NCBI GenBank assembly: GCA_964553825.1
Contig: CAZKLT010000001.1
Location: forward strand, 51,423 to 115,422
Direction of reading: 5' to 3'
DNA: 64,000 bases
DNA from: an uncultured Gammaproteobacteria bacterium
GTDB lineage: Bacteria; Patescibacteriota; Microgenomatia; UBA10105; UBA927
The translations under genes and the position numbers were made by a program. Below, piece after piece: positions 2,230 through 51,201 of this stretch. Every line of letters starts with the position of its first letter. Within the stretch, counting starts at the first letter, position 1. A model generated the notes under the pieces. It was not told the origin of the DNA. It ran no database searches and was given only the letters and a program-made list of their open reading frames with translations.

Positions 2230-2389
2230 TCTTATCGGAAGCTCCGAATCCCGTGAAATTCGGGAACTGTGCCGCAACGGTAATAGTCCGGTCGCAGGCT
2301 TCTGGTATTTGCGCATCCTTCGAGTCAAAGGAGAAGCCACAAGCACCTTCTCGATTCGAGAAGGTTTTTTGTGGCAGAGAGGCAAGTAT

Positions 2390-4393: not shown

Positions 4394-4405
4394 TATGATA
4401 CTTCT

Positions 4406-4849
4406 ATGACTAATCTGCCCGCAGATACGAGTGTAACTGATGCACAAACGACTCAGTCGACACCGCCCGTTTCCCCGGTAACGCCGTCGGGGAATAAGGA
4501 AATGGTTGGCGGTACGATTGACGCCAAAGAAGGCCTTATCGATGTTACCGGTCAGGAAATGGCGCTACCCAAGGAAGTCGCTTCAGCGGGAGTGCACATG
4601 CAGCCAACGACGATTCCGATCCCTCCCCCGGTAGCGCAGCTGGGCGTAAAACCGGCAGGACCCAACGTGCCCGTATCGCCAACACCCACAGTGACGCTTC
4701 CTATTTCAGATGACCAGATCGCACAGGGACTTACATTGAGTGTAACCGAGTCATGGAGATGGCTTTCCGAGTGGTGTGTCAAGCGGTTGAAACAGCTACA
4801 TGTCGGCATTCAGACGGTCGGCGGGAAAATAATCCGGGTAAAAATTTAA
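4406..4849 (+). CDS. Hypothetical Pro/Thr-rich protein
   Basis: ATG start 13 nt after the previous stop. Low-complexity P/T/V-rich sequence, no signal peptide seen. The coding call rests only on ORF length and operon context. Confidence 0.4.
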   Translation: MTNLPADTSVTDAQTTQSTPPVSPVTPSGNKEMVGGTIDAKEGLIDVTGQEMALPKEVASAGVHMQPTTIPIPPPVAQLGVKPAGPNVPVSPTPTVTLPISDDQIAQGLTLSVTESWRWLSEWCVKRLKQLHVGIQTVGGKIIRVKI

Positions 4850-4853
4850 TCGT

Positions 4854-7202
4854 ATGCAGGATCAATTACTTGATGGTGTTTATAGACTTGAAGTAATAGG
4901 AATAAGCGTTTTGCTCATGCTGTTTTTTTTGGGCGGGCTTTTTTTGGTGGGCTATATTCTGTTTCTTATGTGGAAATACAGAAACAGGGAAGAACACTCG
5001 CTTGAGACGGTGCTTCTTCAGATTGCCGTGCCCCGCGATAACGAAATTAAGATTGACGCCGCAGAACAGATGTTTTCAAGTCTTCACAGCATCGCACATG
5101 GAGATTTTTGGTCCTTTCTCAAGCCGCAGGAGCATTTGTCCTTTGAGATCGTGGCGCGGCCGGAAGACATTCGATTTTATGTTGCGGTCCCCAAGAAGCT
5201 CACCGACCTCGTCGAGAAGCAAATTCATGGAGCATATCCGGGAGCAGACATTCGGCAGGTAGAGGAATATGCGCTCTTTTCTGAGACCGGTAAAGTGGCT
5301 TTTGCCGCATTGTGTCTCGGAGGCGCGGATTATCAGCCGCTTCGTGTTTTTCGTGATCTTCCCACCGATCCGTTGTCTTCCATAACATCCGTTTTGGCCA
5401 AAATGCGTCCCGGGGAAGCTGCCGTTGTTCAGATATTGGTTCAGCCGGCAAATGATAAATGGCGGGGGCTTGGCAGATCATATATATCGAAAGTAAAGAA
5501 AAATGAAGCAAACCCCGATAAGGCAAGCTTTTCCGTAGATCCCAAGACACTGGAAGCCATTGAGCAGAAGGTAAGTAAGCCAGGATTTAACACCGTTATT
5601 CGGTGTGTGGTGTCGGCGGAAACGAAAGAAAACGCGCAGATGCATCTGGATAATCTATTGACTAGTTTCAGCCAGTTCTCATCCGACCATAATCACTTTA
5701 CGAAAGTAAAAATGCCATTCAAGCAGTTGTTTATGATGGACTTCATTTATCGGTATTTTCCGATTATGAATGTACCGCTTTTTCGCCAATTCAGCGTCAT
5801 GAACAGTGATGAGTTGGCAAGCGTATTTCATCTCCCGAATAAATCAATCGAAACTGCGCATATTTACTGGCTGAATGCAAAGCGGGCACCGGCACCCTCG
5901 CAAATTCCCATGAGCGGTCTGTATTTGGGTAAGTCCCGGTACCGTGGTGTAGAGCGGCCGATTTTCATTGGTGAGGATGACAGAAGAAGGCATATGTACG
6001 TCATCGGGAAAACAGGCACCGGCAAATCACAGTTATTAGAAGAAATGATTATTCAGGATATCAATGAAGGAAAGGGGATCGCCGTTGTCGATCCTCATGG
6101 TGATCTTATTGATGGTATCCTTGCGCGCATGCCCGCGTCCCGCGCAGAAGACGTAATTTATTTTGACCCGTCTGACCTTGAGCGGCCGATGGGGCTCAAC
6201 ATGCTTGAAGCCAAAACAGAAGAGCAAAAACATTTCGTGGTTACCTCCATTGTCGGTCTTATGTATAAGCTGTATGACCCGATGAAAACCGGTATCATCG
6301 GGCCCCGATTCGAACACGCGATTCGAAACGCCATGTTAACGGTTATGGTGGAGCCAGGCAACACGTTTGTGGAAGTAGTGCGTGTGTTAACGGACAGCGC
6401 ATTTGTGCAGGAGCTTTTGCCGAAGCTGCAGGATCCGATTATCCGTCGGTATTGGACTGATCAGATTGCGCAGACAGCTGACTTTCATAAATCTGAGGTG
6501 CTTGATTATATCGTTTCCAAATTCGGCCGATTTGTCACCAATAAACTCATGCGTAATATCATCGGCCAATCCCAATCGTCATTTGATTTCCGCAAAGTAA
6601 TGGATGACGGGAAAATTTTACTGGTCAATCTTGCCAAGGGAAAAATTGGGGAAGAGAACAGTAACTTCCTGGGACTTATTCTGGTGCCGCGCATTCTTAT
6701 ATCCGCTATGAGTCGTCAGGAAATTCCGGAAAGTCAGCGCCGAGATTTCTACTTGTATGTCGATGAATTTCAGAACTTTGCGACACCCGATTTCGCACAA
6801 ATTCTTTCAGAAGCCAGAAAATACCGCCTCAACCTTATCGTAGCGAATCAATTCATCGGTCAAATGGAAGAAGAGGTGAAAAACGCCGTGTTTGGGAATG
6901 TCGGAACCGTTGTTTCGTTCCGCGTTGGTGTTACCGATGCCAACTATCTCCAGCATGAATTCCAGCCGACGTTTAATGAAGCAGATCTTATCAATATCGA
7001 CAAATTCAATGCTTATATAAAGACCAGCGTCAGAAATGAACCGGTTAAACCATTTAGCATGGACTTAACGAAAGACATGACGAAAGTAAATGCTGCAAAA
7101 AATCCAAAAGTGTCCGAGGCAATCATCCAATTATCGCGATTGAAATTCGGCCGATCAAGAGAATTGGTCGAGGCAGAGATTGCACATCGTGCGCGATTGT
7201 AA
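4854..7202 (+). CDS. Type IV secretion coupling protein-like ATPase (VirD4/TraG/TraD family), membrane-anchored
   Basis: N-terminal transmembrane helix pair. Walker A IGKTGTGKS. C-terminal block YVDEFQNFATPDF...RKYRLNLIVANQFIGQ...FGNVGTVVSFRV resembles the TraG-D_C / TrwB C-terminal region (DEF Walker B, Q-rich sensor). Confidence 0.6.
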   Translation: MQDQLLDGVYRLEVIGISVLLMLFFLGGLFLVGYILFLMWKYRNREEHSLETVLLQIAVPRDNEIKIDAAEQMFSSLHSIAHGDFWSFLKPQEHLSFEIVARPEDIRFYVAVPKKLTDLVEKQIHGAYPGADIRQVEEYALFSETGKVAFAALCLGGADYQPLRVFRDLPTDPLSSITSVLAKMRPGEAAVVQILVQPANDKWRGLGRSYISKVKKNEANPDKASFSVDPKTLEAIEQKVSKPGFNTVIRCVVSAETKENAQMHLDNLLTSFSQFSSDHNHFTKVKMPFKQLFMMDFIYRYFPIMNVPLFRQFSVMNSDELASVFHLPNKSIETAHIYWLNAKRAPAPSQIPMSGLYLGKSRYRGVERPIFIGEDDRRRHMYVIGKTGTGKSQLLEEMIIQDINEGKGIAVVDPHGDLIDGILARMPASRAEDVIYFDPSDLERPMGLNMLEAKTEEQKHFVVTSIVGLMYKLYDPMKTGIIGPRFEHAIRNAMLTVMVEPGNTFVEVVRVLTDSAFVQELLPKLQDPIIRRYWTDQIAQTADFHKSEVLDYIVSKFGRFVTNKLMRNIIGQSQSSFDFRKVMDDGKILLVNLAKGKIGEENSNFLGLILVPRILISAMSRQEIPESQRRDFYLYVDEFQNFATPDFAQILSEARKYRLNLIVANQFIGQMEEEVKNAVFGNVGTVVSFRVGVTDANYLQHEFQPTFNEADLINIDKFNAYIKTSVRNEPVKPFSMDLTKDMTKVNAAKNPKVSEAIIQLSRLKFGRSRELVEAEIAHRARL

Positions 7203-8748: not shown

Positions 8749-8820
8749 GCGTCCGTAGCTCAGCGGTAGAGCGATTGTCTTATACACAATTGGTCGGTGG
8801 TTCGAATCCATCCGGACGCA
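8749..8820 (+). tRNA. tRNA with anticodon UAU (decodes AUA; isoleucine by anticodon), no encoded CCA
   Basis: Manual cloverleaf: acceptor GCGTCCG/CGGACGC, D-stem GCTC/GAGC, anticodon stem ATTGT/ACAAT with loop CTTATAC (U33, anticodon TAT at 8781-8783, A37), T-arm GGTGG-TTCGAAT-CCATC, discriminator A. Confidence 0.8.
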
Positions 8821-8821
8821 C

Positions 8822-20272: not shown

Positions 20273-20488
20273 CTAGGGTAATTCCTTAAGCTTGAAATCA
20301 TCCATGACGAGTATTATTAAGCCCACGATAATGCCCAGGAGAGCACTGAATACTGCGTGTTCGGGAAACAAATACGTATCTATGATATTCCATGCGCCCC
20401 TCCAGATAAGAATTATTGCAACAAGGTCGATGATTGTGTGGAAGTTGAGCCCAACACGGTGAAAGCGTTTCCGTTTCTTGCCGATCAT
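20273..20488 (-). CDS. Small hypothetical membrane protein (71 aa)
   Basis: Two hydrophobic helices. Tightly packed between neighbouring genes. No family recognised. Confidence 0.3.
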   Translation of the reverse strand: MIGKKRKRFHRVGLNFHTIIDLVAIILIWRGAWNIIDTYLFPEHAVFSALLGIIVGLIILVMDDFKLKELP

Positions 20489-20491
20489 TCG

Positions 20492-21430
20492 TTATCCTCC
20501 AATGCCGTATACCACCAGGAAAACACTTGCAGTCCACAAGAGAACCGTCGTAAGGAGCGGTAGATCTGAGGTGAGAATTTTTTCGGGCGACTCCCCCTTT
20601 CCTTCATAGATTAATTGCATATATCGCATGATTCCGTACAGAACGAACGGAATTGTGATCATCATCCATTTACGCTCTGGAAGGTCTGAGGTGAATTCCG
20701 AATAATTCCGGAAAATGAACCCCTGATAAATCGGTCGTTCCAGAAACGTATAAAAGGCATAGGTAATGAAGGTTGAATTGGCGAACATAGCCGTATATGT
20801 GTCCAACAGCTTTTCGGAATAGTGCGAAAGGCTGGTTCTGGTGTCGTGTGGCAGGACGCCTTTGTATCCCTGTACGAGCGTCAGTTCAGCACGGCGTTTT
20901 CCGATCGCGAGAAACAGAGCAAGTGAAAGAGCGGCAAGAGCAAGCCATACGGAGATGTGATAGCCGCTTGCGGCCTCGCCAGCGTAGACGCGTAGAAAAT
21001 AGGCTGCCGTAATGGCGAGAATATCGATCACGCTTATGTGCTTGAGAAACAACGTATATGAGTATTGAAGGATAACAAACAGCACTGCAAGGAGGAAAAA
21101 TCCGCGACCCAGCGAGGCTGCGGTGATAAGTCCCAGGGTTACGAATGCTACGGAGGAAGCAATCGCCAGACTTGGTGAAAGCATACCGCTGGCGACAGGA
21201 CGGAATTTTTTAAACGGGTGCTTGCGGTCGCGGGAGGCATCCATGACGTCATTGAAGATATAGTTGGAAGATGATAACAAGCAAAAAGAGATAAAACCGA
21301 AGAATGTCGCTGATAGTGCCTCTGCGCTAAATATATGTCCCGTGATAAGGATGGTCGTAAATAAGGCTAAGTTTTTCAGCCACTGTCGGGGTCTTGCTGT
21401 TTTGAGAATTGCGAAAAGAATGCGACCCAT
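20492..21430 (-). CDS. Decaprenyl-phosphate 5-phosphoribosyltransferase homologue (UbiA superfamily, DPPR synthase-like)
   Basis: ARPRQWLKN...NDVMDASRDRKHPFKKFRPVASG...KHISVIDI...IGKRRAEL...IPFVLYGIMRY closely parallels mycobacterial Rv3806c/UbiA motifs. The track start at 21610 is GTG, so the ATG at 21430 (MGRILF) is preferred. Confidence 0.8.
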   Translation of the reverse strand: MGRILFAILKTARPRQWLKNLALFTTILITGHIFSAEALSATFFGFISFCLLSSSNYIFNDVMDASRDRKHPFKKFRPVASGMLSPSLAIASSVAFVTLGLITAASLGRGFFLLAVLFVILQYSYTLFLKHISVIDILAITAAYFLRVYAGEAASGYHISVWLALAALSLALFLAIGKRRAELTLVQGYKGVLPHDTRTSLSHYSEKLLDTYTAMFANSTFITYAFYTFLERPIYQGFIFRNYSEFTSDLPERKWMMITIPFVLYGIMRYMQLIYEGKGESPEKILTSDLPLLTTVLLWTASVFLVVYGIGG

Positions 21431-22458
21431 AATGAAAATGCTAAAAATCCGACCCCCACAAGAAGAAACGCAAATAATTTTTGTTGACTTGTGACGGTAA
21501 GCGCTATCACACCAAGTATAGCCGACACCCCCCAGTAAAACAAGGCAATTCGCCGCTTCCCCCAGCCTAAATCCAGGAGTCGGTGATGCAGATGTCCCCT
21601 GTCTGCCCACACGGGTGATTGTTTTTTTCCGATGCGCCGTATAAGAGTAAAGACCGCGTCGGTCATAGGAATGCCTAAGACAAGAAGCGCCGTTCCGAGT
21701 TTCCCATACGAAAGTATTCCCAGAACAGCAAGAAGAAAACCAGCAAGTGTTTTACCGCCATAGCCGGGCATAATTTTTTGAGGATAGAAATTCCATGGAA
21801 TAAATCCACTGAAGGCACCCGCGATAATAAATGCTAAGACCGTAACGGTGAGTTGGCTGGGATCAGAAACCGCAAACCGTAGTGACAGAAGGCCCAACAC
21901 AAAAGCGCTTATTGCCACAAATCCTGGCATTTGGCCGTCAACACCTGCTGACCATCCGACAATATTCATAGTCCACATTATCCATAAAAATGCGAATATA
22001 TCCGCCCATACTAAAAGAGAGTGGCTTCCGAAAAGATCAAACGATATGCGAAACGTATCCAGGGGTATTACCCCTCCTGCCAGTGGGTTCGTGATATAGG
22101 GAATTCCGGCTCCAGCGAGGACAACGATGATTGCAGCAAGCGCATTGGTTCCAAGTCGAACATATGGGCTTATGTCGTGATGATCGTCGATAAGACCTAT
22201 GGTTACTAGGAGTGCCGAGCCCAGCATGATGCCAATAAGAATTTTTGTCATTGGCAACAGGATTATTATCGGGATGAAGATTCCAAATATGATCGCAAGT
22301 CCTCCCGCCCTTGGGATAATTCCCTTGTGCGTATGGGCCGGATGGAACCGTTTTTTGGGGTCATCGACCAGCTTATATTTCCGGGCAAAGTGGATAACCA
22401 TTGGGGTAATTCCAAGCGTTATGAAAAATGCGCTGGCAAACGGTAACAAAAAATTCAT
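21376..22458 (-). CDS. Polyprenyl-phosphate N-acetylhexosamine-1-phosphate transferase (MraY/WecA family, GT4)
   Basis: Multi-TM. LIDDHHDISP (DDxxD), MNIVGWSAGVDG and HLHHRL motifs are typical of the WecA/TagO/MraY family. Confidence 0.8.
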   Translation of the reverse strand: MNFLLPFASAFFITLGITPMVIHFARKYKLVDDPKKRFHPAHTHKGIIPRAGGLAIIFGIFIPIIILLPMTKILIGIMLGSALLVTIGLIDDHHDISPYVRLGTNALAAIIVVLAGAGIPYITNPLAGGVIPLDTFRISFDLFGSHSLLVWADIFAFLWIMWTMNIVGWSAGVDGQMPGFVAISAFVLGLLSLRFAVSDPSQLTVTVLAFIIAGAFSGFIPWNFYPQKIMPGYGGKTLAGFLLAVLGILSYGKLGTALLVLGIPMTDAVFTLIRRIGKKQSPVWADRGHLHHRLLDLGWGKRRIALFYWGVSAILGVIALTVTSQQKLFAFLLVGVGFLAFSLWVAFFSQFSKQQDPDSG

Positions 22459-22461
22459 GCG

Positions 22462-22842
22462 TTACGTGATAAGAAAAAGAATTTTGGCAAGAGCGACGAA
22501 TGACAACAACGCAACAATAAGAGATGTCAGGAATGCTATCTGCGAAAAAATGAGATATTCAGAGAGAAGATAAATTGCCAAAAGCGAATTTAAGACATAG
22601 AGAAATAGACTGCCAAGGGGCAGCAATAGAAGGAGTGCCGGGTGTGCAAGCTGGTCGCTGCCCCATGGTTGCGAATACCAGAGAGGAACCTGTGCCGGTA
22701 GCGACCGATACTTGATCAATAACAAAACAAACGAAAGGATTGTAACCCCAAAAACAATTTTTGAGGATAGCCCGATGATCCAGTTGGAGTTCATCTGTTT
22801 CCATGCACTTTGGGCCTCTTTTGTGTGGAGTTGTACTTTCAT
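22462..22842 (-). CDS. Small hypothetical membrane protein (126 aa)
   Basis: Three to four hydrophobic helices. Sits between the GT-C and WecA-like genes on the same strand. Confidence 0.4.
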   Translation of the reverse strand: MKVQLHTKEAQSAWKQMNSNWIIGLSSKIVFGVTILSFVLLLIKYRSLPAQVPLWYSQPWGSDQLAHPALLLLLPLGSLFLYVLNSLLAIYLLSEYLIFSQIAFLTSLIVALLSFVALAKILFLIT

Positions 22843-22847
22843 ACCTG

Positions 22848-24197
22848 TTACCGAGCTCCGGAAGGTTTTGTGTTTTGTTGCGAAATGGGCGCTTGGTACG
22901 AAATGTCGTAGGTTCCGTCCTGATGAATAATAAACGCCCGAATCGGGTAGGGAGGCAAATCATAAGCGATATTTGATGCGGACATAATGATATCACCTAT
23001 ATACCAGGGAAATGCTTCGCGTTGCGGATTGTACCAGTAAACGCCTGAAGCGGTAGTGTTGTAGTACATAGCTTCAAAGAGGATGAGTGGGCTATCGGTC
23101 ATGATGACATCGCGTTCTGTCGCCATAGCGTTAATTTGAGCGAGCGTATCTCGCATTGTGCCCTTCGGGCGCAGCGGAGCATACCAAAGATTGAATCCCA
23201 ACACGAAAAGCAGTGCTACAGTTGCAGCGCCTTTCTGCAGATGCGTATTTTTAATTTGTTCGATGGCCAGAACAATAAGAAAGATCAGAGCAATGGAGGC
23301 GAAGATAACATACCGCATAACAAAGAGCGGTTTTATTAGTGAAACACCGAGAATTATTATAAGAGGCAAAAAAACCATCAGAAAAAAGAATGCATTTCGC
23401 TCTCGAGTTTTTAGAGGAATGAGTGTCGAGATTGAGATAACGAGCAGGATGAGGGAGAGTCTTGCAGTGTGCTGCCACAGATACCATGGTGTCCCCTCAT
23501 AGCCAATGAATACGTTTCCCAGCACCGACTTTATGAGTTGCATGTCTACGGGAAAATACCAGGAATACTTTAACCTGTGCAAATCAATAACTGCTTTTGT
23601 CATCCATGGGATAAACGCAACGAAAACCGTAGCAAACGATCGGAGCATGGGATCAGCGAGTACTGACCGGATCGTCCATTTTTGGGAATGCTTCGATCGA
23701 TAGGTCAAGTAGTGAATTCCCTGAACAAGCGGAATGAATGCCATATAGGCGTGTGTATACATGCCAAGGGTCGTTGCCAAAATATGCCACGGGTATTTGC
23801 GTTCCATATACGTAAACATGGACGCCACAGCAAAAAACATATACCAGCCATACGCCCGTATTTCGAATGCATAATATAAAAGCATAGGGTTAAAAAAGAA
23901 AAAGACAGGAAGAAACCAAGAGAGCCAGTGTTTCTTGAATATACGTTCGGCCCAAAAAATAACCAGCACGGTAGCCAGGCTAAATCCGACAAGTGAGAGG
24001 CTTCGTGCGGCTATTTCGCCGGTACCAAAAAGCTTCATCCAGATATGGAGAAATACGTAATAGAGCGGTGGTTCAAAGGAGATAGATGTGATAAATGAGC
24101 TTATCGGTCTTTGCGCCAAAAGGAGGGAAAACGCTTCATCTCGCCATATGCCTTGAGTGAGATAGAGAAGCGGACTATGCGATAAGAGGAATTCCAT
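22848..24197 (-). CDS. GT-C fold membrane glycosyltransferase (ArnT/PMT-like, polyprenyl-phosphate-sugar dependent)
   Basis: Multi-TM N-terminal domain with early GIWRDEAFS (DE motif in the first extracytoplasmic loop) and a soluble C-terminal domain. This architecture is typical of GT39/GT83-type GT-C enzymes. Confidence 0.65.
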   Translation of the reverse strand: MEFLLSHSPLLYLTQGIWRDEAFSLLLAQRPISSFITSISFEPPLYYVFLHIWMKLFGTGEIAARSLSLVGFSLATVLVIFWAERIFKKHWLSWFLPVFFFFNPMLLYYAFEIRAYGWYMFFAVASMFTYMERKYPWHILATTLGMYTHAYMAFIPLVQGIHYLTYRSKHSQKWTIRSVLADPMLRSFATVFVAFIPWMTKAVIDLHRLKYSWYFPVDMQLIKSVLGNVFIGYEGTPWYLWQHTARLSLILLVISISTLIPLKTRERNAFFFLMVFLPLIIILGVSLIKPLFVMRYVIFASIALIFLIVLAIEQIKNTHLQKGAATVALLFVLGFNLWYAPLRPKGTMRDTLAQINAMATERDVIMTDSPLILFEAMYYNTTASGVYWYNPQREAFPWYIGDIIMSASNIAYDLPPYPIRAFIIHQDGTYDISYQAPISQQNTKPSGAR

Positions 24198-24204
24198 GGA
24201 TCTA

Positions 24205-25686
24205 TTATACTTTTTCTGTCACCCTATATTCTAATCTTTTTCCGAGGATCATGCGCGTGTGGGCATCCAGACCCGGTAGCGCTGCCAGGAAGAACGATAC
24301 AATCGGAACGGTAAGCCACTGAATGTAGAGAAACGGTAATCGCCACGAACTAAAATCTTTCGGGCGCGGCGGCTTGGTGCGCCAATCAAGAATGATAATA
24401 ATGAAAAGGAAAATAAGGGATAGTGTCAGAATTCCGGATGAAAGTTGGGATAAATTGTGTCCAAGAACTGTTCGGCCAAACGCCGGATTTACCAAAGGCG
24501 GCAGAACGCTTCCGATCGTGAGAATAAACCAATTTGATGGCCAAAACACATGCTGTTCCAAGAGCTGCAGTACCCGACGCAAACGATCGGACGGTGGAAT
24601 TTCATTATGCATTACTGCACTTTTTACGACATAGGGAACGTCTGAAATTCCCCATGCCCACCGTTTTGACTGTTCGTACTGATTGATCATCGTTCGCCAG
24701 AATCCGTGGCTCTCGGCGGAATCAAGAAGTAACGGAAGGAAGATGCTTTTTGTTCGAACCCGTTCTCCCAGGGTGAAATATACTTTGAAAAACATGTGAT
24801 AGTCCTCCGGAATAACATCTACTGCCCAGAAGCCTGCCTTCATAGCGGTAGATAATCCCAACGAATAGGTCGAAAAATTGATGAGCTTATTCTTCTGGGA
24901 CAACATTGCCAGATTTGAAATGCTAAACATGGTATTAACAACACGGCTCGGAAGCGGAATGCGCCAGATATTATTGTAGAAAAGAATCGCCCCTTGGTAG
25001 AAATGATACTCGCGTTCGGGATCCTTCAGATACGAATGAGCAAGATACGAGAAGTATTTCGGATGGAGCAGTGCGTCAGCATCGCAGGATGTTATGGTCG
25101 TGAATGCAACAGGAATGCGCCATTCTTTAAGTTTCGCAACCGCCTGTCGAGCGGCGTGAGCCATATTTGATGATTTGCCTGCGACCTCCCCTGGTTTCAA
25201 TTCATGGCTCGTAACAAGAAATTTACCGAATTTTTTAGCGAATTCTTTGGTAAGAATTTTTCCGGTTTGCGTGGCCTCGGGATCTTTGGCTTCCGTTGCT
25301 AGAACGATAATGAGTTTTTCCTTGGGAAAATCCTGTTTTGTCAGATTATCAAGGGTCCGTTCGAGGATATGAAGCGGTTCATGGTATTCGGGAATTATCA
25401 CAATGTGATAGAGATCCCGGAAATTTGGTAGGATTTTTGCCATTGATAGCCAGTCGATTTTTACATGGGCATTCATGGTAACGAACGATTTGATAGCGTG
25501 GACGGCAAGGGTAAATGATTTGTAGAACCAGAAGACATCAAAGGTGATTATCAGATATGCTACGAGTGCCGGATGCCAAAAAGAAAGCCACAGAGGCATG
25601 GTGATGAGGAGCCAGGACAGGCTTGGGATGATTACTTCCAGAAATCGTGTAGTTCTTACGGGATAACGATTGAAAAAATAGCGCAT
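24205..25686 (-). CDS. Processive family-2 glycosyltransferase (cellulose/chitin-synthase-like)
   Basis: TSCDADALL (DxD), ED motif and QYEQSKRWAWG (QxxRW) embedded between TM helices. Confidence 0.75.
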   Translation of the reverse strand: MRYFFNRYPVRTTRFLEVIIPSLSWLLITMPLWLSFWHPALVAYLIITFDVFWFYKSFTLAVHAIKSFVTMNAHVKIDWLSMAKILPNFRDLYHIVIIPEYHEPLHILERTLDNLTKQDFPKEKLIIVLATEAKDPEATQTGKILTKEFAKKFGKFLVTSHELKPGEVAGKSSNMAHAARQAVAKLKEWRIPVAFTTITSCDADALLHPKYFSYLAHSYLKDPEREYHFYQGAILFYNNIWRIPLPSRVVNTMFSISNLAMLSQKNKLINFSTYSLGLSTAMKAGFWAVDVIPEDYHMFFKVYFTLGERVRTKSIFLPLLLDSAESHGFWRTMINQYEQSKRWAWGISDVPYVVKSAVMHNEIPPSDRLRRVLQLLEQHVFWPSNWFILTIGSVLPPLVNPAFGRTVLGHNLSQLSSGILTLSLIFLFIIIILDWRTKPPRPKDFSSWRLPFLYIQWLTVPIVSFFLAALPGLDAHTRMILGKRLEYRVTEKV

Positions 25687-25699
25687 AGTAACAGGCTAA

Positions 25700-26482
25700 T
25701 TATATCACGGGCAACCCAAACAAAGATTGCGCTGACTGCGTCGTCGTATTTTCTATATCTGTTTGCTGTTTTCCTAAAACATCGGCTATTTTTGCGGCGA
25801 TGAGTGGTATATATTGAGGCTCGTTTCTGGTTCCGCGATGTGGAACCGGCGTAAGGTATGGCGCGTCTGTCTCGAGTACGATCATCGAAAGAGGAATGCT
25901 TGCTACGATTGCTGCCAGCTGTTTGGAATAGGTAATGTTTCCATCAATGCCCAGGAAAAGGTTGTGGCGTTTGGCCTCACGCATTTCCTGTAGTCCGCCC
26001 GAAAAACAATGAATGACTCCGCGAACGGAGGGTCCTTCTTCCAGGACTGAGAAAAAATCATCGAATGCATTCCTGCAATGCATAATAACAGGGAGGTTGT
26101 ACTTTGCGGCAAGATGAAGATGCTCCGCAAACAGGGCTCTTTGCTGCTGTTTTTTTCCGAGGGCTGGCTCTCCCTTATACAGGTGGTAATCCAAACCGCA
26201 TTCTCCGATCGCGACCACTCCGTCTGCATTTTTTCCTTGGAGAAGTCGTTCAATATCCCGAATGTCCGGAGAATATGCGGCTTCGTACGGATGAAAACCA
26301 ACGGATGCAAAAACAGTGCCGCGGTTGGCATCGGCAAGTTCGATTGCCAGCCGGGATGACAGAAGGTTGACCCCGGGAACGATGCACATGCGCACATTTT
26401 GCGCTATGGCATTTGTCAAAACTTCATTTCTGTCGTTTTGAAACTGCTCAAGCTGAAGGTGGCAGTGTGTATCGATATACAT
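25700..26482 (-). CDS. tatD: TatD family metal-dependent hydrolase/DNase
   Basis: MYIDTHCHLQ...GFHPYEA...GECGLDY...HCF..G are the TatD signatures. Confidence 0.85.
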   Translation of the reverse strand: MYIDTHCHLQLEQFQNDRNEVLTNAIAQNVRMCIVPGVNLLSSRLAIELADANRGTVFASVGFHPYEAAYSPDIRDIERLLQGKNADGVVAIGECGLDYHLYKGEPALGKKQQQRALFAEHLHLAAKYNLPVIMHCRNAFDDFFSVLEEGPSVRGVIHCFSGGLQEMREAKRHNLFLGIDGNITYSKQLAAIVASIPLSMIVLETDAPYLTPVPHRGTRNEPQYIPLIAAKIADVLGKQQTDIENTTTQSAQSLFGLPVI

Positions 26483-26512: not shown

Positions 26513-27949
26513 TTATGATAGGCGGGGGAATAAAGGAGGTTGAGCCTTGATAGTCGGACTCGAAAATTGGTTAAGAATGGTTGCCGACGTTTGCGGGAGA
26601 AAGGGTTGAAGGAGAATTGCGATTTCTGCAATCTGGGCGATTGCGATTGTCAGGATATCTGCCAAATCATCGCCGGTACGTTTCCACGGTTGCTTATCAT
26701 TAATGAGTTGATCAGTTGCTTTTATTTTATCCCAAATAATACTTAATGCATCATGAAGGCGATACTCATCCATCGCATGTTGGAACGCTGATGGCGCTAC
26801 CTCGGAAAAAGTTTTTTTCGTTACCTCAAGGCGTATCGGGGCCGCAAGCTTAGCTACGCGAGAGATGAGGTTGCCTAATCCGTTTGCAAGATCCGCATTA
26901 TACAACTCGATAAACCTTCGTTCGGAATAGTCTCCGTCGCCATAGGAGGGTATTTCGCGGAGCAGATAATACCGAACAGCGTCCGATCCAAACCGGTCAA
27001 TAACGCCGACCGGATCCACGACGTTGCCAACGGTTTTGCTCATTTTCTGGCCATCAACCGTGAGATATCCGTGTACGAAAAGGCGCTTGGGGATTTGTAG
27101 CCCGGCGGATTGAAGAATTGCCGGCCAGTAGATCGCGTGAAATCGGAGTATCCCCTTCCCAATGACCATAAGATCAGCTGGGGCCCATTGAGAGAATAAC
27201 GCATCATCCCACCCGAAGCCTATCCCGCTGTGATAAATATTGAGCGCGTCGAACCATACATACATAATCTGACTCGCGTCACCGGGTACCGGGACGCCCC
27301 ATCCTTTTGCACGGGTGTGGCTTCGTGAAACGGAGAAGTCTTCCAATCCTCTTTTCACGAAGGCGAGTGCTTCATTTTTTCGAATTTTAGGAACTATTTT
27401 CAGTTCATCATTTTCAATGAGGTTCACAAAAAAATCCTGGTAGTTTGATAATCTGAAGAAGTAATTTTCTTCGGATACTTTTTCCAGTTTTCGTCCCGGA
27501 TGTTCAAAGCACTCGCCATTTTTATCGATCTCGTCCGCTGCATAGAAGGATTCACATCCTACGCAGTAGAGTCCTTCGTATGATTTTTTGTATATGTCTC
27601 CTTTTGCCACGCAACGTTCCCAAAGTTTTTGGGAAGACGGGAAATGATGCGTGCGATCTGTCCCGCGTTGCCAGAAGTCAAAATGAACATCCAGCTTTTT
27701 GGCGACGTCAACAAATTCTTTCTGATGAAGATCACAGAAGGTCTGCGGATTCATGTTTGCCTTTTCGGCCGCTTGGACGATTTTTAGTGCGTTTTCATCT
27801 GCGCCACATAAATAGGCAACGTCACGGCCCAGGAGCGTTTGGTATCGGCGGATCGTGTCTGCATAAACAAATTCCTGTGCATGTCCAATATGCGGAGCGG
27901 CATTTACATAGGGAATTGCGCTATGAAGATAGTATTTCTTGGGCGACAT
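26513..27949 (-). CDS. metG: Methionine--tRNA ligase (short form, no C-terminal tRNA-binding extension)
   Basis: HIGHAQ (HIGH), KMSKTVGNVV (KMSKS) and a CxxC zinc knuckle in the connective peptide. Confidence 0.9.
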   Translation of the reverse strand: MSPKKYYLHSAIPYVNAAPHIGHAQEFVYADTIRRYQTLLGRDVAYLCGADENALKIVQAAEKANMNPQTFCDLHQKEFVDVAKKLDVHFDFWQRGTDRTHHFPSSQKLWERCVAKGDIYKKSYEGLYCVGCESFYAADEIDKNGECFEHPGRKLEKVSEENYFFRLSNYQDFFVNLIENDELKIVPKIRKNEALAFVKRGLEDFSVSRSHTRAKGWGVPVPGDASQIMYVWFDALNIYHSGIGFGWDDALFSQWAPADLMVIGKGILRFHAIYWPAILQSAGLQIPKRLFVHGYLTVDGQKMSKTVGNVVDPVGVIDRFGSDAVRYYLLREIPSYGDGDYSERRFIELYNADLANGLGNLISRVAKLAAPIRLEVTKKTFSEVAPSAFQHAMDEYRLHDALSIIWDKIKATDQLINDKQPWKRTGDDLADILTIAIAQIAEIAILLQPFLPQTSATILNQFSSPTIKAQPPLFPRLS

Positions 27950-36798: not shown

Positions 36799-38007
36799 AT
36801 GGCATCCCGCAAATCACTTGTCCGCTACGATAAGATATTCGCTACACTCCTGTTTGCGTTGTTTGGCATTATTGCCCTCGTGCTTGGGTATAAGGCGGTC
36901 ATGACGAATACAGAGCAGCGGTCCCGCGCAGCAGAAACACAGACAATTTATAAGCAGTGGGAATTTAACGGCAGGGATTCCCAGGGATGGAGTGTCAGTT
37001 CACCAACGACAAGTGTCATGAAAGCAGGTGCCTTGGTCGTGACCGCAGGGAGAAGCGCGCTCCCATCGCTTCGAAATACAACTGTTGACGCTTCCGTTCC
37101 CGCCGGACTAAAAACGGTATCCTTTTCTCTGTCCGTTGGGTCCGTTCAGGTACCTGCGCGAAGAGAAGGTGATGGTTCATGCGGACCTGCTCCGGACTGT
37201 CGGGGACGCTTGATAGAGCTTCCGACGGCATCTCGATGTCCGGTGTACCGATGTCAACAAGAAGAGCATTCCAGTGAGGGGATGCAGGAGTCCGATGACT
37301 CGTATTTTCGCAGATCCATAAGCAATCGATATGCGTGTCCCGAGGATACGCGAACATGCGCAGATGGCACATCGGTCGGACGAATATTGCCGAATTGTGA
37401 TTTCGTTGCGTGTCCGGGTACGAGCGGAACCGTCAATCAGCGCAGGAGGGTGGCACGTAAATTCACAGCACTTTTGTATTATCGTCTCAAATCAAAGGAT
37501 CGATTCGAGAGGCCTATTGAGTTTAAAGGATCGGTGGGTGGCGGGTATCAAACCTACAGCGTGACGCTTCATGATATCGCTGCCATGGATATCAATAGTC
37601 TCCGCATTGTGTTTACCTCAGGAGTAAAGGCAGGCGAAGCCGTTGCTTTTGATTGGATCAGATTACTGGGTCCCGTAAATGCATCAAGCACCCATGCGCC
37701 AACGCCGCATGCAACGCCAACGCTTGTTGCATGTGACGGTCCGGATGGGTCAGCGTGTCAACTAGAAGGATGTCAGCCATGTCCAACAGGGCGGCCCTGT
37801 CCGATGGTTTGCCGGCCGCAATATGGCACGTGTCTTAATCATCGGTGTATTAATGAGACGCCGCAAGCTCCAGAGGGATGCCATTATCAGCAGGTTCGCT
37901 GTGTTCGGGCGCCGTGTAACCCCGTGCTTGTTTGCCCTTCAGGGTCTCCCGCGCGCGGCGGATGGGGCACGTCTGGGGGTGGCGGATCTACGGGATTTTC
38001 CCACTAA
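36799..38007 (+). CDS. Cysteine-rich extracytoplasmic protein with N-terminal membrane anchor, function unknown
   Basis: ATG at 36799 has an AAGGA RBS. TM helix IFATLLFALFGIIALVLGY. About 28 Cys in CxC/CxxC-type clusters (CGPAPDCRG, CPVYRC, ACDGPDGSACQLEGCQPCPTGRPCPMVCRPQYGTCLNHRC) and a Gly-rich C-terminus. Confidence 0.5.
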   Translation: MASRKSLVRYDKIFATLLFALFGIIALVLGYKAVMTNTEQRSRAAETQTIYKQWEFNGRDSQGWSVSSPTTSVMKAGALVVTAGRSALPSLRNTTVDASVPAGLKTVSFSLSVGSVQVPARREGDGSCGPAPDCRGRLIELPTASRCPVYRCQQEEHSSEGMQESDDSYFRRSISNRYACPEDTRTCADGTSVGRILPNCDFVACPGTSGTVNQRRRVARKFTALLYYRLKSKDRFERPIEFKGSVGGGYQTYSVTLHDIAAMDINSLRIVFTSGVKAGEAVAFDWIRLLGPVNASSTHAPTPHATPTLVACDGPDGSACQLEGCQPCPTGRPCPMVCRPQYGTCLNHRCINETPQAPEGCHYQQVRCVRAPCNPVLVCPSGSPARGGWGTSGGGGSTGFSH

Positions 38008-38827
38008 GCGGATAATAGAGGATTTTGCCTCCAAACCCTTCCTTGAATTTCGTAAATCCTTTCCATGACGTATTCTCCCGGGGAATGCGTTCATCCCAGA
38101 CGCCGACGAGATCGAGTTGTTTGGCACCACGACGTTTGCTCACTTTTGCCGCTTCATAGAGAAGTAATGTGGGGGCAAATTGTTTTTTCCCCGTTCTTGT
38201 TGCTCCTGCAATCCAGTAGTAGGCGATGTTATCCCAAAAGAGGATAAGAACGCCTCCGATCAGTCGGGGAGATGCCCCGGAATAACCGAGCAGAATTGTT
38301 GCGTTTTGGGGTGAAAATGCCTCCCATAACTCTTTTATGCCGGTTGTGGTAATAAATCCAAAGAGTCCGGCGGATGCATTTTTAACCCGAATAAGTGCGT
38401 TGATATCATCGGATTCTTTGACAATAACATTGTGTTTGAGGGCTCTTCTGACCGCGCGCCTTTTGGCTTCGGAAAACGAGGAAAAAATTCGGTCTTCCCG
38501 GGGAGTTAAATCGATTCGAATGGTTTTTGTGGGAAGATAGGGTGATTTGACGACAGATATGTTTGCCGGGAGGGAAGCAATCCATGTATGCAGTGCAGCG
38601 GAATTTTGCGTATGAACGGGTTCAACCACGAGCCGTCGCACGCCGAGGGTCGTCAAAACCGGGGCAAGCTTTTCCATGCTAGGGAGAGCAACTGGTCTGT
38701 GAATTTTGGCGAGCCTTCCCAAAAGCGGGAAGGATTTGTGATAGATGGCGACGCCATCGACACTGGTGACGCCCCACTTCAGGCGTTTCATATATTCAAT
38801 GAACGGCGCCGCCTGTTGAGGTTCCAT
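37988..38827 (-). CDS. FemAB-family peptidoglycan aminoacyltransferase (bridge formation)
   Basis: ILFWDNIAYYWIAGATR...LLLYEAAKVSKRRGAKQLDLVGV...FKEGFG is the FemABX GNAT-like core. Confidence 0.7.
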   Translation of the reverse strand: MEPQQAAPFIEYMKRLKWGVTSVDGVAIYHKSFPLLGRLAKIHRPVALPSMEKLAPVLTTLGVRRLVVEPVHTQNSAALHTWIASLPANISVVKSPYLPTKTIRIDLTPREDRIFSSFSEAKRRAVRRALKHNVIVKESDDINALIRVKNASAGLFGFITTTGIKELWEAFSPQNATILLGYSGASPRLIGGVLILFWDNIAYYWIAGATRTGKKQFAPTLLLYEAAKVSKRRGAKQLDLVGVWDERIPRENTSWKGFTKFKEGFGGKILYYPLSGKIP

Positions 38828-39771
38828 TATTTTTTAAAATGTTTCAGAATAGTCCACCGTATTTTGTCAGCAAGGATGTAGCACTGATACAGCATTGGCT
38901 TAAGAACAAGGTCATATGAGCCCGCAAATTCCAACAGCGTTGGACGGAAGCCTTCCTTAAATCGATGGAAACCGTACCATGGGTCATTGGGATCAGGATC
39001 TGGTCCCATAGCCCCCCATAAATCAAATCGCTTCAAATTACGTTTTTTTGCCCACTTGGCGATTTCCCATAACAGAAGATGGGGTGCCATGACTTCGCGA
39101 TATGCTCGGGACGAGGTGCCGTATGGATAGTAGGCAGTATTTTCCCAAACGAAGATTATCCAGGCTGCGATAATCTCCCCTTTGAATGAAGCAGTGAACA
39201 GATGGGCAATCCCGGCCCCGCGCAACACTTCCCACATTGTTTCGTGGTATGTTCTGCTGTGAGCATAGAAACCCTGCCTGGATGTCGTTTCTTCAGAAAG
39301 TCGCAGATATGCGTTAAATGCGGCGGATGAATTATCTTCCTTAATCTGAACACCGTGTTTTTGTGCAACTCTGATGTTGTATCGGGTTTTGGGGTGCATG
39401 GCTTTCAACAAATCTTCTTCTGATTTCGTAAGATCCAGGACGAACGTGAATTGTGTAAACAAAGGATGGTGTGAAGGTTTTATCCCGTCCAGTTGGGATA
39501 TTTTTGTTTTTTGGGATGCCGGTATATTGGGTTCGAGCTGTATAAACACCGCGTTTTTCTGGCGTCCTAATTGTTGTAGCTGGCTGACCATCGTTTTCGT
39601 TGGCATGGGTCCTTTCGGAAAGTAGCCGATGGTCCAAGGAGTATGAGGAATACGATGAAAAGTGACAAGCCAGTCGTCCTGTGTTGCAGTATGAATGCCC
39701 ATTCTCGTACGGAATTCTCCCCACGCAGGTGACTGCAGCGGATGGGGCGGGATTATTTTCTCCTGATTCAT
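38827..39771 (-). CDS. FemAB-family peptidoglycan aminoacyltransferase (second paralogue)
   Basis: IIFVWENTAYYPYGTSS...HLLLWEIAKWAKKRNLKRFDLWGA...FKEGF. Its stop overlaps the downstream paralogue's start (TAATG). Confidence 0.7.
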   Translation of the reverse strand: MNQEKIIPPHPLQSPAWGEFRTRMGIHTATQDDWLVTFHRIPHTPWTIGYFPKGPMPTKTMVSQLQQLGRQKNAVFIQLEPNIPASQKTKISQLDGIKPSHHPLFTQFTFVLDLTKSEEDLLKAMHPKTRYNIRVAQKHGVQIKEDNSSAAFNAYLRLSEETTSRQGFYAHSRTYHETMWEVLRGAGIAHLFTASFKGEIIAAWIIFVWENTAYYPYGTSSRAYREVMAPHLLLWEIAKWAKKRNLKRFDLWGAMGPDPDPNDPWYGFHRFKEGFRPTLLEFAGSYDLVLKPMLYQCYILADKIRWTILKHFKK

Positions 39772-42688: not shown

Positions 42689-43723
42689 ATGGAAGTAAGA
42701 CCAAAGCGCAGGAGTTTACCCGGGATTGGAATTGCGTTCGTGTGGGCCGTCGTAATCGGTCTCGCGATTCTTCTTTCGTACGGCATCGTTACCTGTCTGC
42801 GGTTTATGCGTACCACGGGTCTGACACCGTCGCTTGCAGCCCGACTTATCGTTGATGACGGTGAAGAGCTGAAATCCACAAGCGACAGGACCAATATTCT
42901 TTTGCTAGGTGTCGGAGGCGGAGACCATGAGGGTGCAGATCTGACCGACACGATGATGGTCGTATCCCTGGATCAGGATCAGAAGTCTGCGGCGTTTATC
43001 TCTATCCCCCGTGATATCTGGTCAGATACGCTTAAGGACAAAGTAAACAGTGCCTATCACTATGGAGAAGAGAAAAAAGAGGGCGGCGGACTGCTTCTGG
43101 CCAAAGTAATCGCGGAAGATGTCGTGGGAGTGCCGATTCATTACAGTCTGCTTCTCGACTTTTCCGGATTTAAGGAAATTATCGATCTGCTGGGCGGCAT
43201 AAACGTGAATGTCTCGTCTGCCTTTACCGACAATGATTATCCGATCGCCGGGAAGGAAAAGGATACTTGTCCCGGCGACCCGACGAATAGGTGTGTCTAT
43301 GAGACTATTCATTTCGATGCAGGGATGCAGCACATGGATGGGGAACGTGCACTCAAATATGTGAGAAGCAGACATGCTGAAGGCGCAGAGGGGAGTGATT
43401 TTGCACGGTCCAGAAGGCAGCAGGATGTACTGATTGCCATAAAAGACACGGTCGTTCACCCGACAAGGTGGTTTACGGTGGAGCGTGCAGGAAAATTGCA
43501 GGATGTCATAGATCGGGCAACTGATACGGATATGAACATTGCTCAGCTTTTGACGGTCGCGAAATTAATCGCTGGAATTCCAGATGAGCGGATAGAGAAA
43601 ATTTCCATAGACGAGCTTCTGTATAACCCGGCATCGTATCTGTACGGAAGATATGTGCTCATCCCCAAAGAGGGATGGAGGGAAGTTCACACATTTATAA
43701 AAGACGCCCTTCAGAAACCGTAA
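42689..43723 (+). CDS. LytR-CpsA-Psr (LCP) family cell-envelope glycopolymer transferase
   Basis: N-terminal TM. NILLLGVGGGDHEGADLTDTMMVVSL...ISIPRDIW is the LCP signature. Confidence 0.8.
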   Translation: MEVRPKRRSLPGIGIAFVWAVVIGLAILLSYGIVTCLRFMRTTGLTPSLAARLIVDDGEELKSTSDRTNILLLGVGGGDHEGADLTDTMMVVSLDQDQKSAAFISIPRDIWSDTLKDKVNSAYHYGEEKKEGGGLLLAKVIAEDVVGVPIHYSLLLDFSGFKEIIDLLGGINVNVSSAFTDNDYPIAGKEKDTCPGDPTNRCVYETIHFDAGMQHMDGERALKYVRSRHAEGAEGSDFARSRRQQDVLIAIKDTVVHPTRWFTVERAGKLQDVIDRATDTDMNIAQLLTVAKLIAGIPDERIEKISIDELLYNPASYLYGRYVLIPKEGWREVHTFIKDALQKP

Positions 43724-46012: not shown

Positions 46013-46014
46013 AG

Positions 46015-46925: not shown

Positions 46926-47023
46926 AGGATCGAAGTATATCATAGATCGTGCTGAATCAAAATAGGTAAATGGCGGGAAACATGCTGTATCCATGGGTAA
47001 ATCGGTGCGTTATAATAGGTGAA

Positions 47024-50079: not shown

Positions 50080-50083
50080 AGAA

Positions 50084-51145: not shown

Positions 51146-51201
51146 CCGTACATCCATTATGGTCGTATATATATAAAAATCGCAAGTGTAAGATGAAGGG
51201 G

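Follow-up and report, generated by a model that had tools for sequence, protein, structure and literature searches.

Four membrane glycosyltransferases of Candidatus Gottesmanbacteria, a groundwater bacterium of the CPR/Patescibacteria with a tiny genome, are encoded in one conserved operon on the minus strand. In our preferred reading, to which we give a probability of roughly 45%, this is a core-genome operon for the assembly of an envelope glycan, in which a lineage-specific ribose-lipid synthase has joined two older two-gene modules and a GT-C enzyme would decorate the glycan. The reading is built on the established enzyme classes, the conserved active site of the phosphoribosyltransferase, the GT-C fold and the synteny patterns. 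The order of the genes is shared by ~80 Gottesmanbacteria species whose genomes measure ~1 Mb, so what the operon makes is probably a core glycan of the wall or surface, in a group of bacteria for whose cell envelope almost nothing is known experimentally. The predicted products of the cluster and of relevant genes around it, within the 64-kb stretch of DNA analysed (the window), are as follows.

20273-20488, minus strand: 71-aa ORF with 2 TM helices (Pfam 'Fuseless', E = 1.5e-8), a doubtful part of the cluster
20492-21430, minus strand: UbiA-superfamily polyprenyl-phosphate 5-phosphoribosyltransferase (PPPRS, Rv3806c-type), 312 aa
21376-22458, minus strand: polyprenyl-phosphate N-acetylhexosamine-1-phosphate transferase (PNPT; WecA/TagO/MraY superfamily; GT4), 360 aa
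22462-22842, minus strand: small membrane protein with ~3 TM helices, 126 aa
22848-24197, minus strand: GT-C fold glycosyltransferase, 449 aa
24205-25686, minus strand: integral-membrane GT2 of the cellulose/hyaluronan-synthase type, 493 aa
25700-26482, minus strand: TatD-family hydrolase (Pfam TatD_DNase, E = 1.5e-70)
26513-27949, minus strand: methionyl-tRNA synthetase (MetRS; Pfam tRNA-synt_1g, E = 1.5e-90)
42689-43723, plus strand: LytR-CpsA-Psr (LCP) family protein (Pfam LytR_cpsA_psr, E = 9e-34)

All ORFs of the cluster are real, lie on the minus strand and are closely spaced, with intergenic gaps of 3-13 nt. The GT4 and UbiA genes overlap by 55 nt, the UbiA ATG (at 21430) lying inside the GT4 gene. 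The motifs on which the original prediction relied are all present in the translations: ARPRQWLKN, NDVMDASRDRKHPFKKFRPV and IGKRRAEL in the UbiA protein, GIWRDEAFS in the GT-C protein, and QxxRW, as QSKRW, in the GT2 protein. That prediction also counted two small membrane proteins. The 126-aa protein is conserved, but the 71-aa ORF, which lies 3 nt downstream of UbiA and beyond the 20492-25686 range then considered, has a homologue in only one of 82 related loci (L061, at the same position) and is thus not conserved.

By sequence, the UbiA protein is convincingly related to the enzyme with which M. tuberculosis produces a lipid-linked ribose donor. It is UbiA throughout its length, with no extra domain (Pfam UbiA, E = 3e-20). 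The NCBIfam DPPR-synthase models score 202.4, 199.2 and 141 bits against it, the first two narrowly missing their equivalog cut-offs (207 for NF008978 and 234 for NF008977, respectively). Every quinone, haem, chlorophyll or GGGP prenyltransferase model, in contrast, gives 48 bits or less (PRK12884 prenyltransferase 48, haem O synthase 36, UbiA 26-34, ChlG 17), and the DPPR models score ~4-fold or more higher. Homologues in Gottesmanbacteria with 73-75% identity are named 'decaprenyl-phosphate phosphoribosyltransferase' by NCBI, and JGI also names homologues DPPR synthase. Among PDB structures, Rv3806c (8j8j, E = 2e-32) matches it best, at 116 bits versus 30 for AfUbiA; both are 9-TM UbiA-fold proteins (312 vs 302 aa) that align over their full length, although their overall identity is low. 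Twelve residues contacting the PRPP pyrophosphate, Mg2+, ribose and 5-phosphate have been defined from cryo-EM structures of Rv3806c (PMC10994848). Eleven are identical here (R22, K28, Y70, N73, D77, K87, R90, Q135, Y138, K143, and Y157), whereas K208 of Rv3806c is replaced by T; across 15 homologues, ten contact residues are invariant and Q122 is either Q or E. It should be noted that the identical residues include phosphoribose contacts of Rv3806c that are not conserved in ordinary UbiA prenyltransferases (PMC10994848). The protein groups with DPPR synthases rather than with quinone or haem prenyltransferases and keeps the PRPP-binding residues, as had been proposed from its motifs. The UbiA-family, GT4 and GT2 assignments are all, by their profile matches, far above chance.

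The GT4 protein is, on the same kind of evidence, a member of the PNPT superfamily (Pfam Glycos_transf_4, PF00953, E = 1.4e-21, 77.6 bits against a cut-off of 27) whose sugar specificity is not fixed by the family scores: the NCBIfam WecA model (TIGR02380, 84 bits) ranks above that of MraY (TIGR00445, 52 bits), and neither equivalog cut-off (326 for WecA, 192 for MraY) is reached. MraY structures match it at E = 2e-9. It is found in all 82 related loci with 57-81% identity, and in sister lineages with 52-54%. Its constant partner is the 126-aa protein, which is encoded directly upstream of it in Gottesmanbacteria and in loci L084, L087, L088, and L091, and which co-varies with GT4 and not with the GT2/GT-C pair. 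This small protein carries the loop LPxQ(I/V)PLxYSxxWGxDQLA, conserved in the alignment, and a weak Pfam match to DUF1648 (E = 0.004), seen in three of six orthologues; Pfam gave no GtrA match for it.

The GT2 protein (Pfam Glyco_trans_2_3, E = 2e-9, and Glyco_tranf_2_3) has an N-terminal TM region, a GT-A domain and a C-terminal TM region, with hydrophobic segments at both ends. D202xD204, E294-D295, and Q339-S-K-R342-W343 do not vary among 20 homologues. From these motifs and the flanking TM regions, it is cellulose/hyaluronan/chitin-synthase-like and putatively processive. Foldseek placed PcManGT (6yv7), the Chlorella virus and Xenopus hyaluronan synthases, and BcsA at the top of its matches for a poor model (pLDDT 59); because the TM region is poorly modelled, a role for GT2 as exporter is a guess.

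The GT-C structure model is confident, and its top fold matches are all GT-C. The predicted structure shows the multi-TM GT-C fold with an acidic motif in the first extracytoplasmic loop (WRDE, residues 18-21, invariant). The segment at its N-terminus is unusually short, and the C-terminus carries a small alpha/beta domain. The closest structures are Pmt4, ALG12, ArnT, and AftA, with oligosaccharyltransferases less close, so an oligosaccharyltransferase identity, which would have spoken against the original prediction, is not what the fold suggests. These closest fold relatives use polyprenyl-monophosphate sugar donors. Weak PMT_2 similarity in 10 of 30 GT-C homologues argues for a GT39/GT83-like lineage over GT136.

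Gene order is identical in every one of the 82 related loci that reaches far enough. PPPRS and GT-C, with two genes between them, share one operon in 77 of the 82, the exceptions being truncated contigs. At least 28 loci contain additional, variable Leloir glycosyltransferases, insertions that are expected of a glycan locus. TatD and MetRS continue the gene string upstream in the same direction; they probably have no functional relation to the glycan cluster, and they keep their upstream position in 67-69 of the 82 loci.

Loci of sister lineages gave a different picture. Their GT-C orthologues (28-34% identity) have GT2 in the same locus in eight of eight cases, directly upstream in seven of them, and the WecA-like gene keeps its small membrane protein. 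However, no UbiA homologue was present in any of the eight loci within the recovered DNA, up to 8 kb on each side. What has stayed together in evolution is thus GT2 with GT-C and the small membrane protein with PNPT, and, with no UbiA gene nearby in these loci, UbiA is read as an addition to an older glycan module of four genes. The catalytic-core residues of GT-C are unchanged in the lineages without UbiA, which implies that the GT-C family predates the UbiA association or needs no adjacent UbiA. Adjacency conserved inside a single CPR lineage is a poor guide to functional linkage, as this comparison makes clear. The link from UbiA to GT-C is positional only; the adjacency comes from one lineage, in which MetRS and TatD, both unrelated, are kept in the string as well. 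Of the proposed pentosyl-lipid pathway from UbiA to GT-C, therefore, both enzyme classes stand, but the connection between them is not borne out by the sister lineages. It is plausible that the UbiA product may feed the neighbouring GT-C.

An alternative that we regard as possible but unlikely is that the operon holds two independent systems. GT2 and GT-C would then work as a pair on their own, of the Ppm1/Pmt, GtrB/GtrV or CsbB/YfhO type: GT2 would make, and perhaps flip, a polyprenyl-P-hexose, and on the outer face GT-C would move the hexose to a protein, a teichoic-acid-like polymer or a lipid. Another GT-C elsewhere in the genome would use the PPPRS product, or this product would have some other fate. 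The clustering of a GT2, a small membrane protein and a GT-C does resemble GtrA/GtrB/GtrV of Shigella and Salmonella and GtcA/CsbB/YfhO of Bacillus and Listeria. However, GT2 differs from GtrB in its N-terminal TM pair and its ED and QxxRW synthase motifs, features that, to our knowledge, known polyprenyl-P-sugar synthases (GtrB, DPMS, ArnC, CsbB) do not have. The small protein differs from GtrA in its weak DUF1648 similarity, its lack of a Pfam GtrA match and its tracking of the WecA-like gene. Furthermore, the window contains no second GT-C for the PPPRS product, and PPPRS is kept in the same operon in ~80 species.

Under the preferred reading of a single glycan assembly operon, we infer the substrates and the order of steps as follows. 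The WecA-type transferase, with its small membrane partner, would load HexNAc-1-phosphate on polyprenyl phosphate and so prime a lipid-linked glycan. The membrane GT2 would extend this primer, or an unprimed chain, and would probably aid its crossing of the membrane, resembling the WecA-initiated, synthase-dependent O-antigen route, for which there is precedent (PMC2841628). UbiA would move 5-phosphoribose from PRPP onto polyprenyl phosphate, and dephosphorylation and flipping by further proteins would yield polyprenyl-P-ribofuranose outside the cell. GT-C, on the outer face, would add to the glycan, as decoration or extension, the sugar of a polyprenyl-monophosphate donor, the simplest such sugar in Gottesmanbacteria being the UbiA-made ribofuranose. 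Linking the product to peptidoglycan could fall to the LCP enzyme, whose gene lies elsewhere in the window; that this enzyme is the ligase joining the PNPT-initiated polymer to the wall is possible by analogy, its tie to the cluster being drawn from the known role of LCP proteins. That a peptidoglycan wall is available for attachment is shown by genes for LCP, FemAB and MurJ in the window, MurJ 25 kb from the cluster.

The nearest precedent for the priming and polymerising steps is Salmonella O:54 WbbE/WbbF (PMC2841628), which pairs a PNPT initiator with an integral-membrane GT2 synthase for which both polymerisation and export have been proposed; WbbF was compared by description. Some relatives have gained an additional enzyme upstream, a soluble GT2 or a GT-B, and the optional GT2 is comparable to WbbE. 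In contrast to Salmonella, the organism here has a single membrane and no LPS, and its locus has GT-C and PPPRS in addition.

No DprE1/DprE2-type protein was found in the 64-kb window, as the original prediction had stated. None of a FAD-oxidase/SDR epimerase pair, a PAP2 phosphatase and a GtrA-like protein (an Rv3789-type small transporter) was present in the window or noticed among the genes examined in related loci. In addition, a Pfam scan of ~55 window ORFs gave no 5-phosphatase (HAD/PRP, or PAP2 as in Rv3807c), and no flippase of MATE, SMR or GtrA type was matched in the window. The setting thus differs from the mycobacterial DPA pathway, whose DprE1/DprE2, PAP2 phosphatase and GtrA-like Rv3789 have no homologue near UbiA or in the window; UbiA here is translationally coupled to the WecA-like gene, whereas Rv3806c lies beside Rv3807c (phosphatase) and glfT2. 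Since there is no epimerase pair in the window, ribofuranose itself is the simplest predicted sugar.

Direct use of undecaprenyl-P-ribofuranose by a GT-C without epimerases has been described outside Actinobacteria in Citrobacter (Kelly et al. 2024 PNAS, PMC11127046). The Citrobacter youngae O1/O2 set comprises a PPPRS-PRP (ORF15), a MATE flippase (ORF14) and a GT-C of family GT136 (ORF12). The Gottesmanbacteria operon resembles it in having PPPRS and GT-C in one cluster, within a locus for a WecA-type-initiated glycan, with no obligatory epimerase and with polyprenyl-P-ribofuranose as the would-be direct extracytoplasmic donor. However, it lacks both a MATE flippase and a HAD phosphatase, whether fused or adjacent, and its GT-C (449 aa) is PMT_2/ArnT-like and without a CBM, while GT136 is described as unlike existing families. 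Across lineages, the partner of GT-C here is the synthase-like GT2 and not PPPRS, and the locus belongs to the core genome with fixed gene order, in contrast to a serotype-variable add-on.

In a true arabinogalactan- or arabinan-like pathway, epimerases with genes outside the window, DprE1/DprE2-like or of another kind, would convert the lipid-ribose to arabinofuranose or xylofuranose, and GT-C would polymerise or attach the pentofuranose like mycobacterial Aft/Emb or like TfpW on Pseudomonas pilins. We consider this improbable: the epimerase pair, PAP2 phosphatase and GtrA-like protein are missing from the window and were not noticed among the genes examined in related loci, PMT, ALG, and ArnT come out ahead of the Aft and Emb enzymes among the fold matches of GT-C, no pilin gene is adjacent, CPR genomes of ~1 Mb are gene-poor, and ribofuranose can be used directly (PMC11127046). 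Pilin pentosylation, suggested by the original prediction, finds no support either, as nothing ties the cluster to pilins.

That UbiA is a conventional prenyltransferase, or a transferase with another phosphosugar donor in a cluster unrelated to pentoses, would fit the narrowly missed cut-offs, the modest identity to Rv3806c and the loss of K208, but is very improbable given the eleven identical contacts, including those for 5-phosphate and ribose that are specific to Rv3806c, the four-fold or more lower scores of all other UbiA subfamilies, and the general want of quinone and haem pathways in CPR genomes, as far as we know.

If PPPRS does feed GT-C in the preferred single-operon scheme, lipid-linked ribofuranose glycosylation would extend to CPR, and the operon would offer a minimal epimerase-free system for studying it. 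A lipid-linked pentofuranose donor outside Actinobacteria is no longer as unusual as the earlier reading supposed: such pathways, long known as arabinofuranose in mycobacteria, have recently been established in Proteobacteria, and three-component pentofuranose systems were reported as widespread in 2024 (PMC11127046). The Gottesmanbacteria operon adds a further case to a kind of pathway already known elsewhere. A more far-reaching view, which we hold to be doubtful, is that Gottesmanbacteria, and perhaps other Microgenomates, have an essential peptidoglycan-linked wall polymer with or of ribofuranose. Its arabinogalactan-like logic would be independent of Actinobacteria, with a PNPT translationally coupled to PPPRS, a synthase-type GT2 paired with a GT-C of short N-terminus, no epimerase, and phosphatase and flippase functions provided by other means.

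Some further features of the window were recorded. A 145-aa ORF at 22559-22996 is out of frame and overlapping. PilN/PilO-like genes were confirmed at 45344-46566. The number of promoter-like sites is not above chance; the only one outside coding sequence on the minus strand lies at 27984-27956, just upstream of MetRS.

Lying on one strand, the genes of the cluster follow directly upon two upstream neighbours, MetRS and TatD:

26513-27949, minus strand, MetRS
25700-26482, minus strand, TatD
24205-25686, minus strand, membrane GT2 of 493 aa
22848-24197, minus strand, polytopic GT-C protein of 449 aa
22462-22842, minus strand, membrane protein of 126 aa
21376-22458, minus strand, Glycos_transf_4 protein (GT4) of 360 aa
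20492-21430, minus strand, UbiA-family protein of 312 aa

The intergenic gaps from MetRS to UbiA were 3-30 nt, and the UbiA start codon was located inside the GT4 gene by 55 nt. The cluster described in the original prediction was confirmed, as its ORFs were present and all of the cited motifs were found in their translations. Promoter and terminator scans showed no excess over shuffled expectation. The window was assigned to Candidatus Gottesmanbacteria (Microgenomates, CPR/Patescibacteria) from the names of close homologues, and a GT-C and a GT2 that were 100% identical to those of the window were present on one 241-kb NCBI contig.

The UbiA-family protein matched the UbiA family in Pfam, and its best NCBIfam models were three decaprenyl-phosphate phosphoribosyltransferase (DPPR synthase) equivalogs (202, 199, and 141 bits), the first two scores being narrowly under the model cut-offs. 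Models of quinone, haem, chlorophyll, and GGGP prenyltransferases scored 48 bits or less each, which placed the protein with the DPPR synthases rather than the quinone/haem prenyltransferases, as had been predicted. The best match among solved structures was Rv3806c (8j8j), with an end-to-end alignment and an E value of 2e-32, while the ordinary UbiA structure 4tq3 gave 30 bits. Cryo-EM of Rv3806c has defined the residues that hold Mg2+ and the pyrophosphate, ribose, and 5-phosphate of PRPP, and its phosphoribose contacts are not common to ordinary UbiA enzymes (PMC10994848). When these substrate-contact residues were mapped through a HMMER alignment, 11 of the 12 were identical in the window protein (K208 was the sole difference), and ten of them were invariant across 15 Gottesmanbacteria homologues. 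Based on the model scores, the structure match, and the contact residues, we consider the protein very probably a polyprenyl-phosphate 5-phosphoribosyltransferase (PPPRS). Its homologues have already been named DPPR synthase by the NCBI and JGI pipelines. The metagenome-assembled genome (MAG) UBA10118 carried two GT4-UbiA pairs on separate contigs (loci L012 and L077), with UbiA proteins 75% and 61% identical to that of the window; the cause is a mixed bin or a genuine duplication.

Species-representative genomes were scanned with the UbiA alignment, and the closest 80 loci listed all belonged to Gottesmanbacteria or Patescibacteria MAGs. The order MetRS-TatD-GT2-GT-C-126aa-GT4-UbiA, followed by a convergent PEGA/SH3 gene, was found in each locus that was long enough. 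Across the related loci, identities to the window proteins were 60-89% for UbiA, 57-81% for GT4, 59-87% for GT2, 35-63% for GT-C, and 26-59% for the 126-aa protein. An additional soluble GT2 of 231 aa (PF00535) was inserted between TatD and the membrane GT2 in 28 loci (including L008, L013, L018, L021, L026-L029, L031, and L033, at locus positions of about 5000-5750), and three loci (L030, L032, and L034) had a GT-B glycosyltransferase at that site (about 4350-5650). The window genome has no such insertion. Such variable glycosyltransferase insertions are usual for loci of glycan assembly. Located 3 nt downstream of UbiA and abutting the convergent PEGA gene at its stop codon, a 71-aa ORF (20273-20488, minus strand) encodes two TM helices and matched Pfam 'Fuseless' (E 1.5e-8). 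Since 81 of the 82 related loci lacked it and only L061 had it, at the same position, it was rejected as a cluster member (a candidate flippase) and placed outside the system. Dozens of TPA MAG records with the Gottesmanbacteria-type operon are titled uncultured Gammaproteobacteria bacterium, with UbiA 67-89% identical to the window protein (L003, L004, L006, L007, L009-L011, and many others); such titles appear to be placeholders or mistaken taxonomic labels.

The fold of the GT-C protein was compared with reference enzymes, giving the following figures.

Fold comparison of the GT-C protein
Pmt4, 22.8
ALG12, 21.2
ArnT, 20.9
AftA, 17.5
AglB, 16.3
STT3B, 15.4
PglB, 13.6
AftB, 12.8
AftD, 11.4
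EmbA, 8.6

By these figures, the protein is nearest to GT-C enzymes that use polyprenyl-monophosphate sugars and not to oligosaccharyltransferases; the fold is silent on which sugar is used. Its invariant WRDE motif is at residues 18-21, and the expected TM1 segment is therefore only ~17 residues long. This short N-terminus was family-wide: relative to canonical GT-C enzymes, TM1 is either absent or of unusually small length. In more distant relatives the N-terminus was 25-30 residues longer. Neither the GT-C nor the small proteins matched any PADLOC defence system.

The membrane GT2 has invariant DxD, ED, and QxxRW motifs and hydrophobic segments at both ends. Because its AlphaFold model was poor (pLDDT 59), fold matches, of which the best were PcManGT, the Chlorella virus and Xenopus hyaluronan synthases, and BcsA, were used to judge no more than the GT-A core and the overall architecture; a profile search of the PDB yielded nothing further. 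Within GT2, the protein falls into the synthase-like branch and not into that of GtrB/DPMS, and it is putatively processive. GT4 is a PNPT-superfamily enzyme, with a WecA score above its MraY score in NCBIfam, both below cut-off; on these scores a housekeeping MraY was rejected. With roughly three TM helices, the 126-aa protein carries the conserved loop LPxQ(I/V)PLxYSxxWGxDQLA, shows weak similarity to DUF1648, and is not GtrA-like.

Among about 55 window ORFs searched against Pfam, none belonged to a DprE1/DprE2-type pair, in agreement with the original prediction, and phosphatases of the PAP2 or HAD type were likewise missing, as were GtrA, SMR, and MATE proteins. Other genes found in the window were as follows:

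37988-39771, minus strand, two tandem FemAB-family genes
42689-43723, plus strand, LCP (LytR-CpsA-Psr) ligase gene
45344-46566, minus strand, PilO-like and PilN-like genes (weak Pfam matches)
46970-48676, plus strand, MurJ

The FemAB pair, LCP, and MurJ indicate a peptidoglycan with an interpeptide bridge and a capacity for wall-polymer attachment, and thus a wall that a PNPT-initiated polymer could join. A GH39-family glycoside hydrolase adjoins a protein that looks secreted and has cohesin and Big_13 domains (48673-51157, minus strand), and the pair may be surface carbohydrate-handling machinery.

We propose that the PNPT would prime a lipid-linked glycan, which the synthase-like GT2 would extend and perhaps export, assisted in some species by the additional Leloir enzyme. 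The PPPRS would make polyprenyl-P-(5-P)-ribose, to be dephosphorylated and flipped by other proteins. The GT-C would then add ribofuranose to the glycan on the outer side of the membrane, and LCP may ligate the finished product to peptidoglycan. The enzyme classes of the PNPT, GT2, PPPRS, and GT-C are well supported. As we infer what the enzymes act on, in which order the steps run, and above all the link from PPPRS to GT-C, we give the mechanism as a whole a probability of roughly 45%.

Adjacency in Gottesmanbacteria alone cannot prove a functional link, since the string also holds MetRS and TatD, and a GT-C profile was therefore searched beyond the lineage. Against 1.8 billion representative proteins, it recovered 282 representatives at E ≤ 1e-30, and the contigs of distant members yielded eight orthologous sister-lineage loci with GT-C proteins 28-34% identical to that of the window. 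Four of them (L083, L085, L089, and L090) had ATP synthase genes followed by GT2-GT-C-SecE-NusG. Three (L084, L087, and L088) had GT2-GT-C, then 1-3.5 kb of unrelated genes, then GT4 immediately preceded by a 101-aa homologue of the 126-aa protein; a radical-SAM gene came after GT4, joined in L087 and L088 by NDP-sugar enzymes. The last (L091) had GT-C-108aa-GT4 with a convergent PEGA gene directly after and GT2 beyond it. No UbiA homologue was found in the DNA recovered from any of the eight loci. These loci show that the stable evolutionary units are GT2 with GT-C and the small protein with GT4, often near each other, and that UbiA is an addition, among the compared loci only in Gottesmanbacteria.

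The main rival explanation is that GT2 and GT-C work together as a self-contained pair of donor synthase and transferase, with the PPPRS serving another purpose. The putative GT-C catalytic core was unchanged in the UbiA-less lineages (WRDE, E61, R65, N103-P104, E112, R114, Y116, R295-Y296, and others), and the loop Y233-E-G-T-P ... W241 was Gottesmanbacteria-specific and differed in those lineages. With the GT2 in the synthase-like branch, we regard this rival as rather unlikely. The original prediction thus stood in part: the ribosyl-lipid synthase and the GT-C class were upheld, but the UbiA-to-GT-C link was weakened by the eight loci in which no UbiA was found, and the novelty of the central idea by published work (PMC11127046).

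Kelly et al. (PNAS 2024, PMC11127046) showed that Citrobacter youngae adds alpha-ribofuranose directly from undecaprenyl-P-ribofuranose by means of a GT-C, the founder of GT136, together with a MATE flippase and a PPPRS to which a HAD phosphatase is fused, epimerases being optional diversifiers. Use of a ribosyl-lipid donor without DprE1/DprE2 outside Actinobacteria, the central idea of the prediction, is therefore an already established mechanism. Unlike that system, the window lacks a recognisable phosphatase or flippase, its GT-C is PMT/ArnT-like, and its PPPRS is translationally coupled to a PNPT. In pairing a PNPT with a membrane synthase GT2, the cluster resembles the O-antigen route that is synthase-dependent and initiated by WecA (PMC2841628). 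In the literature library searched, we found no relevant paper on PPPRS, UbiA, or teichoic acid in CPR/Patescibacteria, and the supplement of Kelly et al. (PMC11127046) contained no CPR example. With the window case, lipid-linked ribofuranose glycosylation would gain a new member at phylum level, a core envelope locus from a phylum that is poorly understood, but no new principle is demonstrated.

The type IV pilus components of the prediction were recovered as the PilN/PilO-like genes, with no pilin or glycosylation gene seen beside them. As no pilin gene or other supporting sign was found near the cluster, pilin glycosylation was kept only as an improbable part of a rival explanation.

A 782-aa protein (4854-7202, plus strand) has TrwB/TraG/VirD4-type coupling-protein domains, hinting at conjugation or type IV secretion. 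A 694-aa ORF (2309-4393, plus strand) is overlapped by a 477-aa antisense ORF (2159-3592, minus strand), both without a Pfam match. The sole tRNA in the 64-kb window is a tRNA-Ile with anticodon TAT (UAU) at 8749-8821 (plus strand); in most bacteria, AUA is read by a lysidine-modified CAU tRNA.
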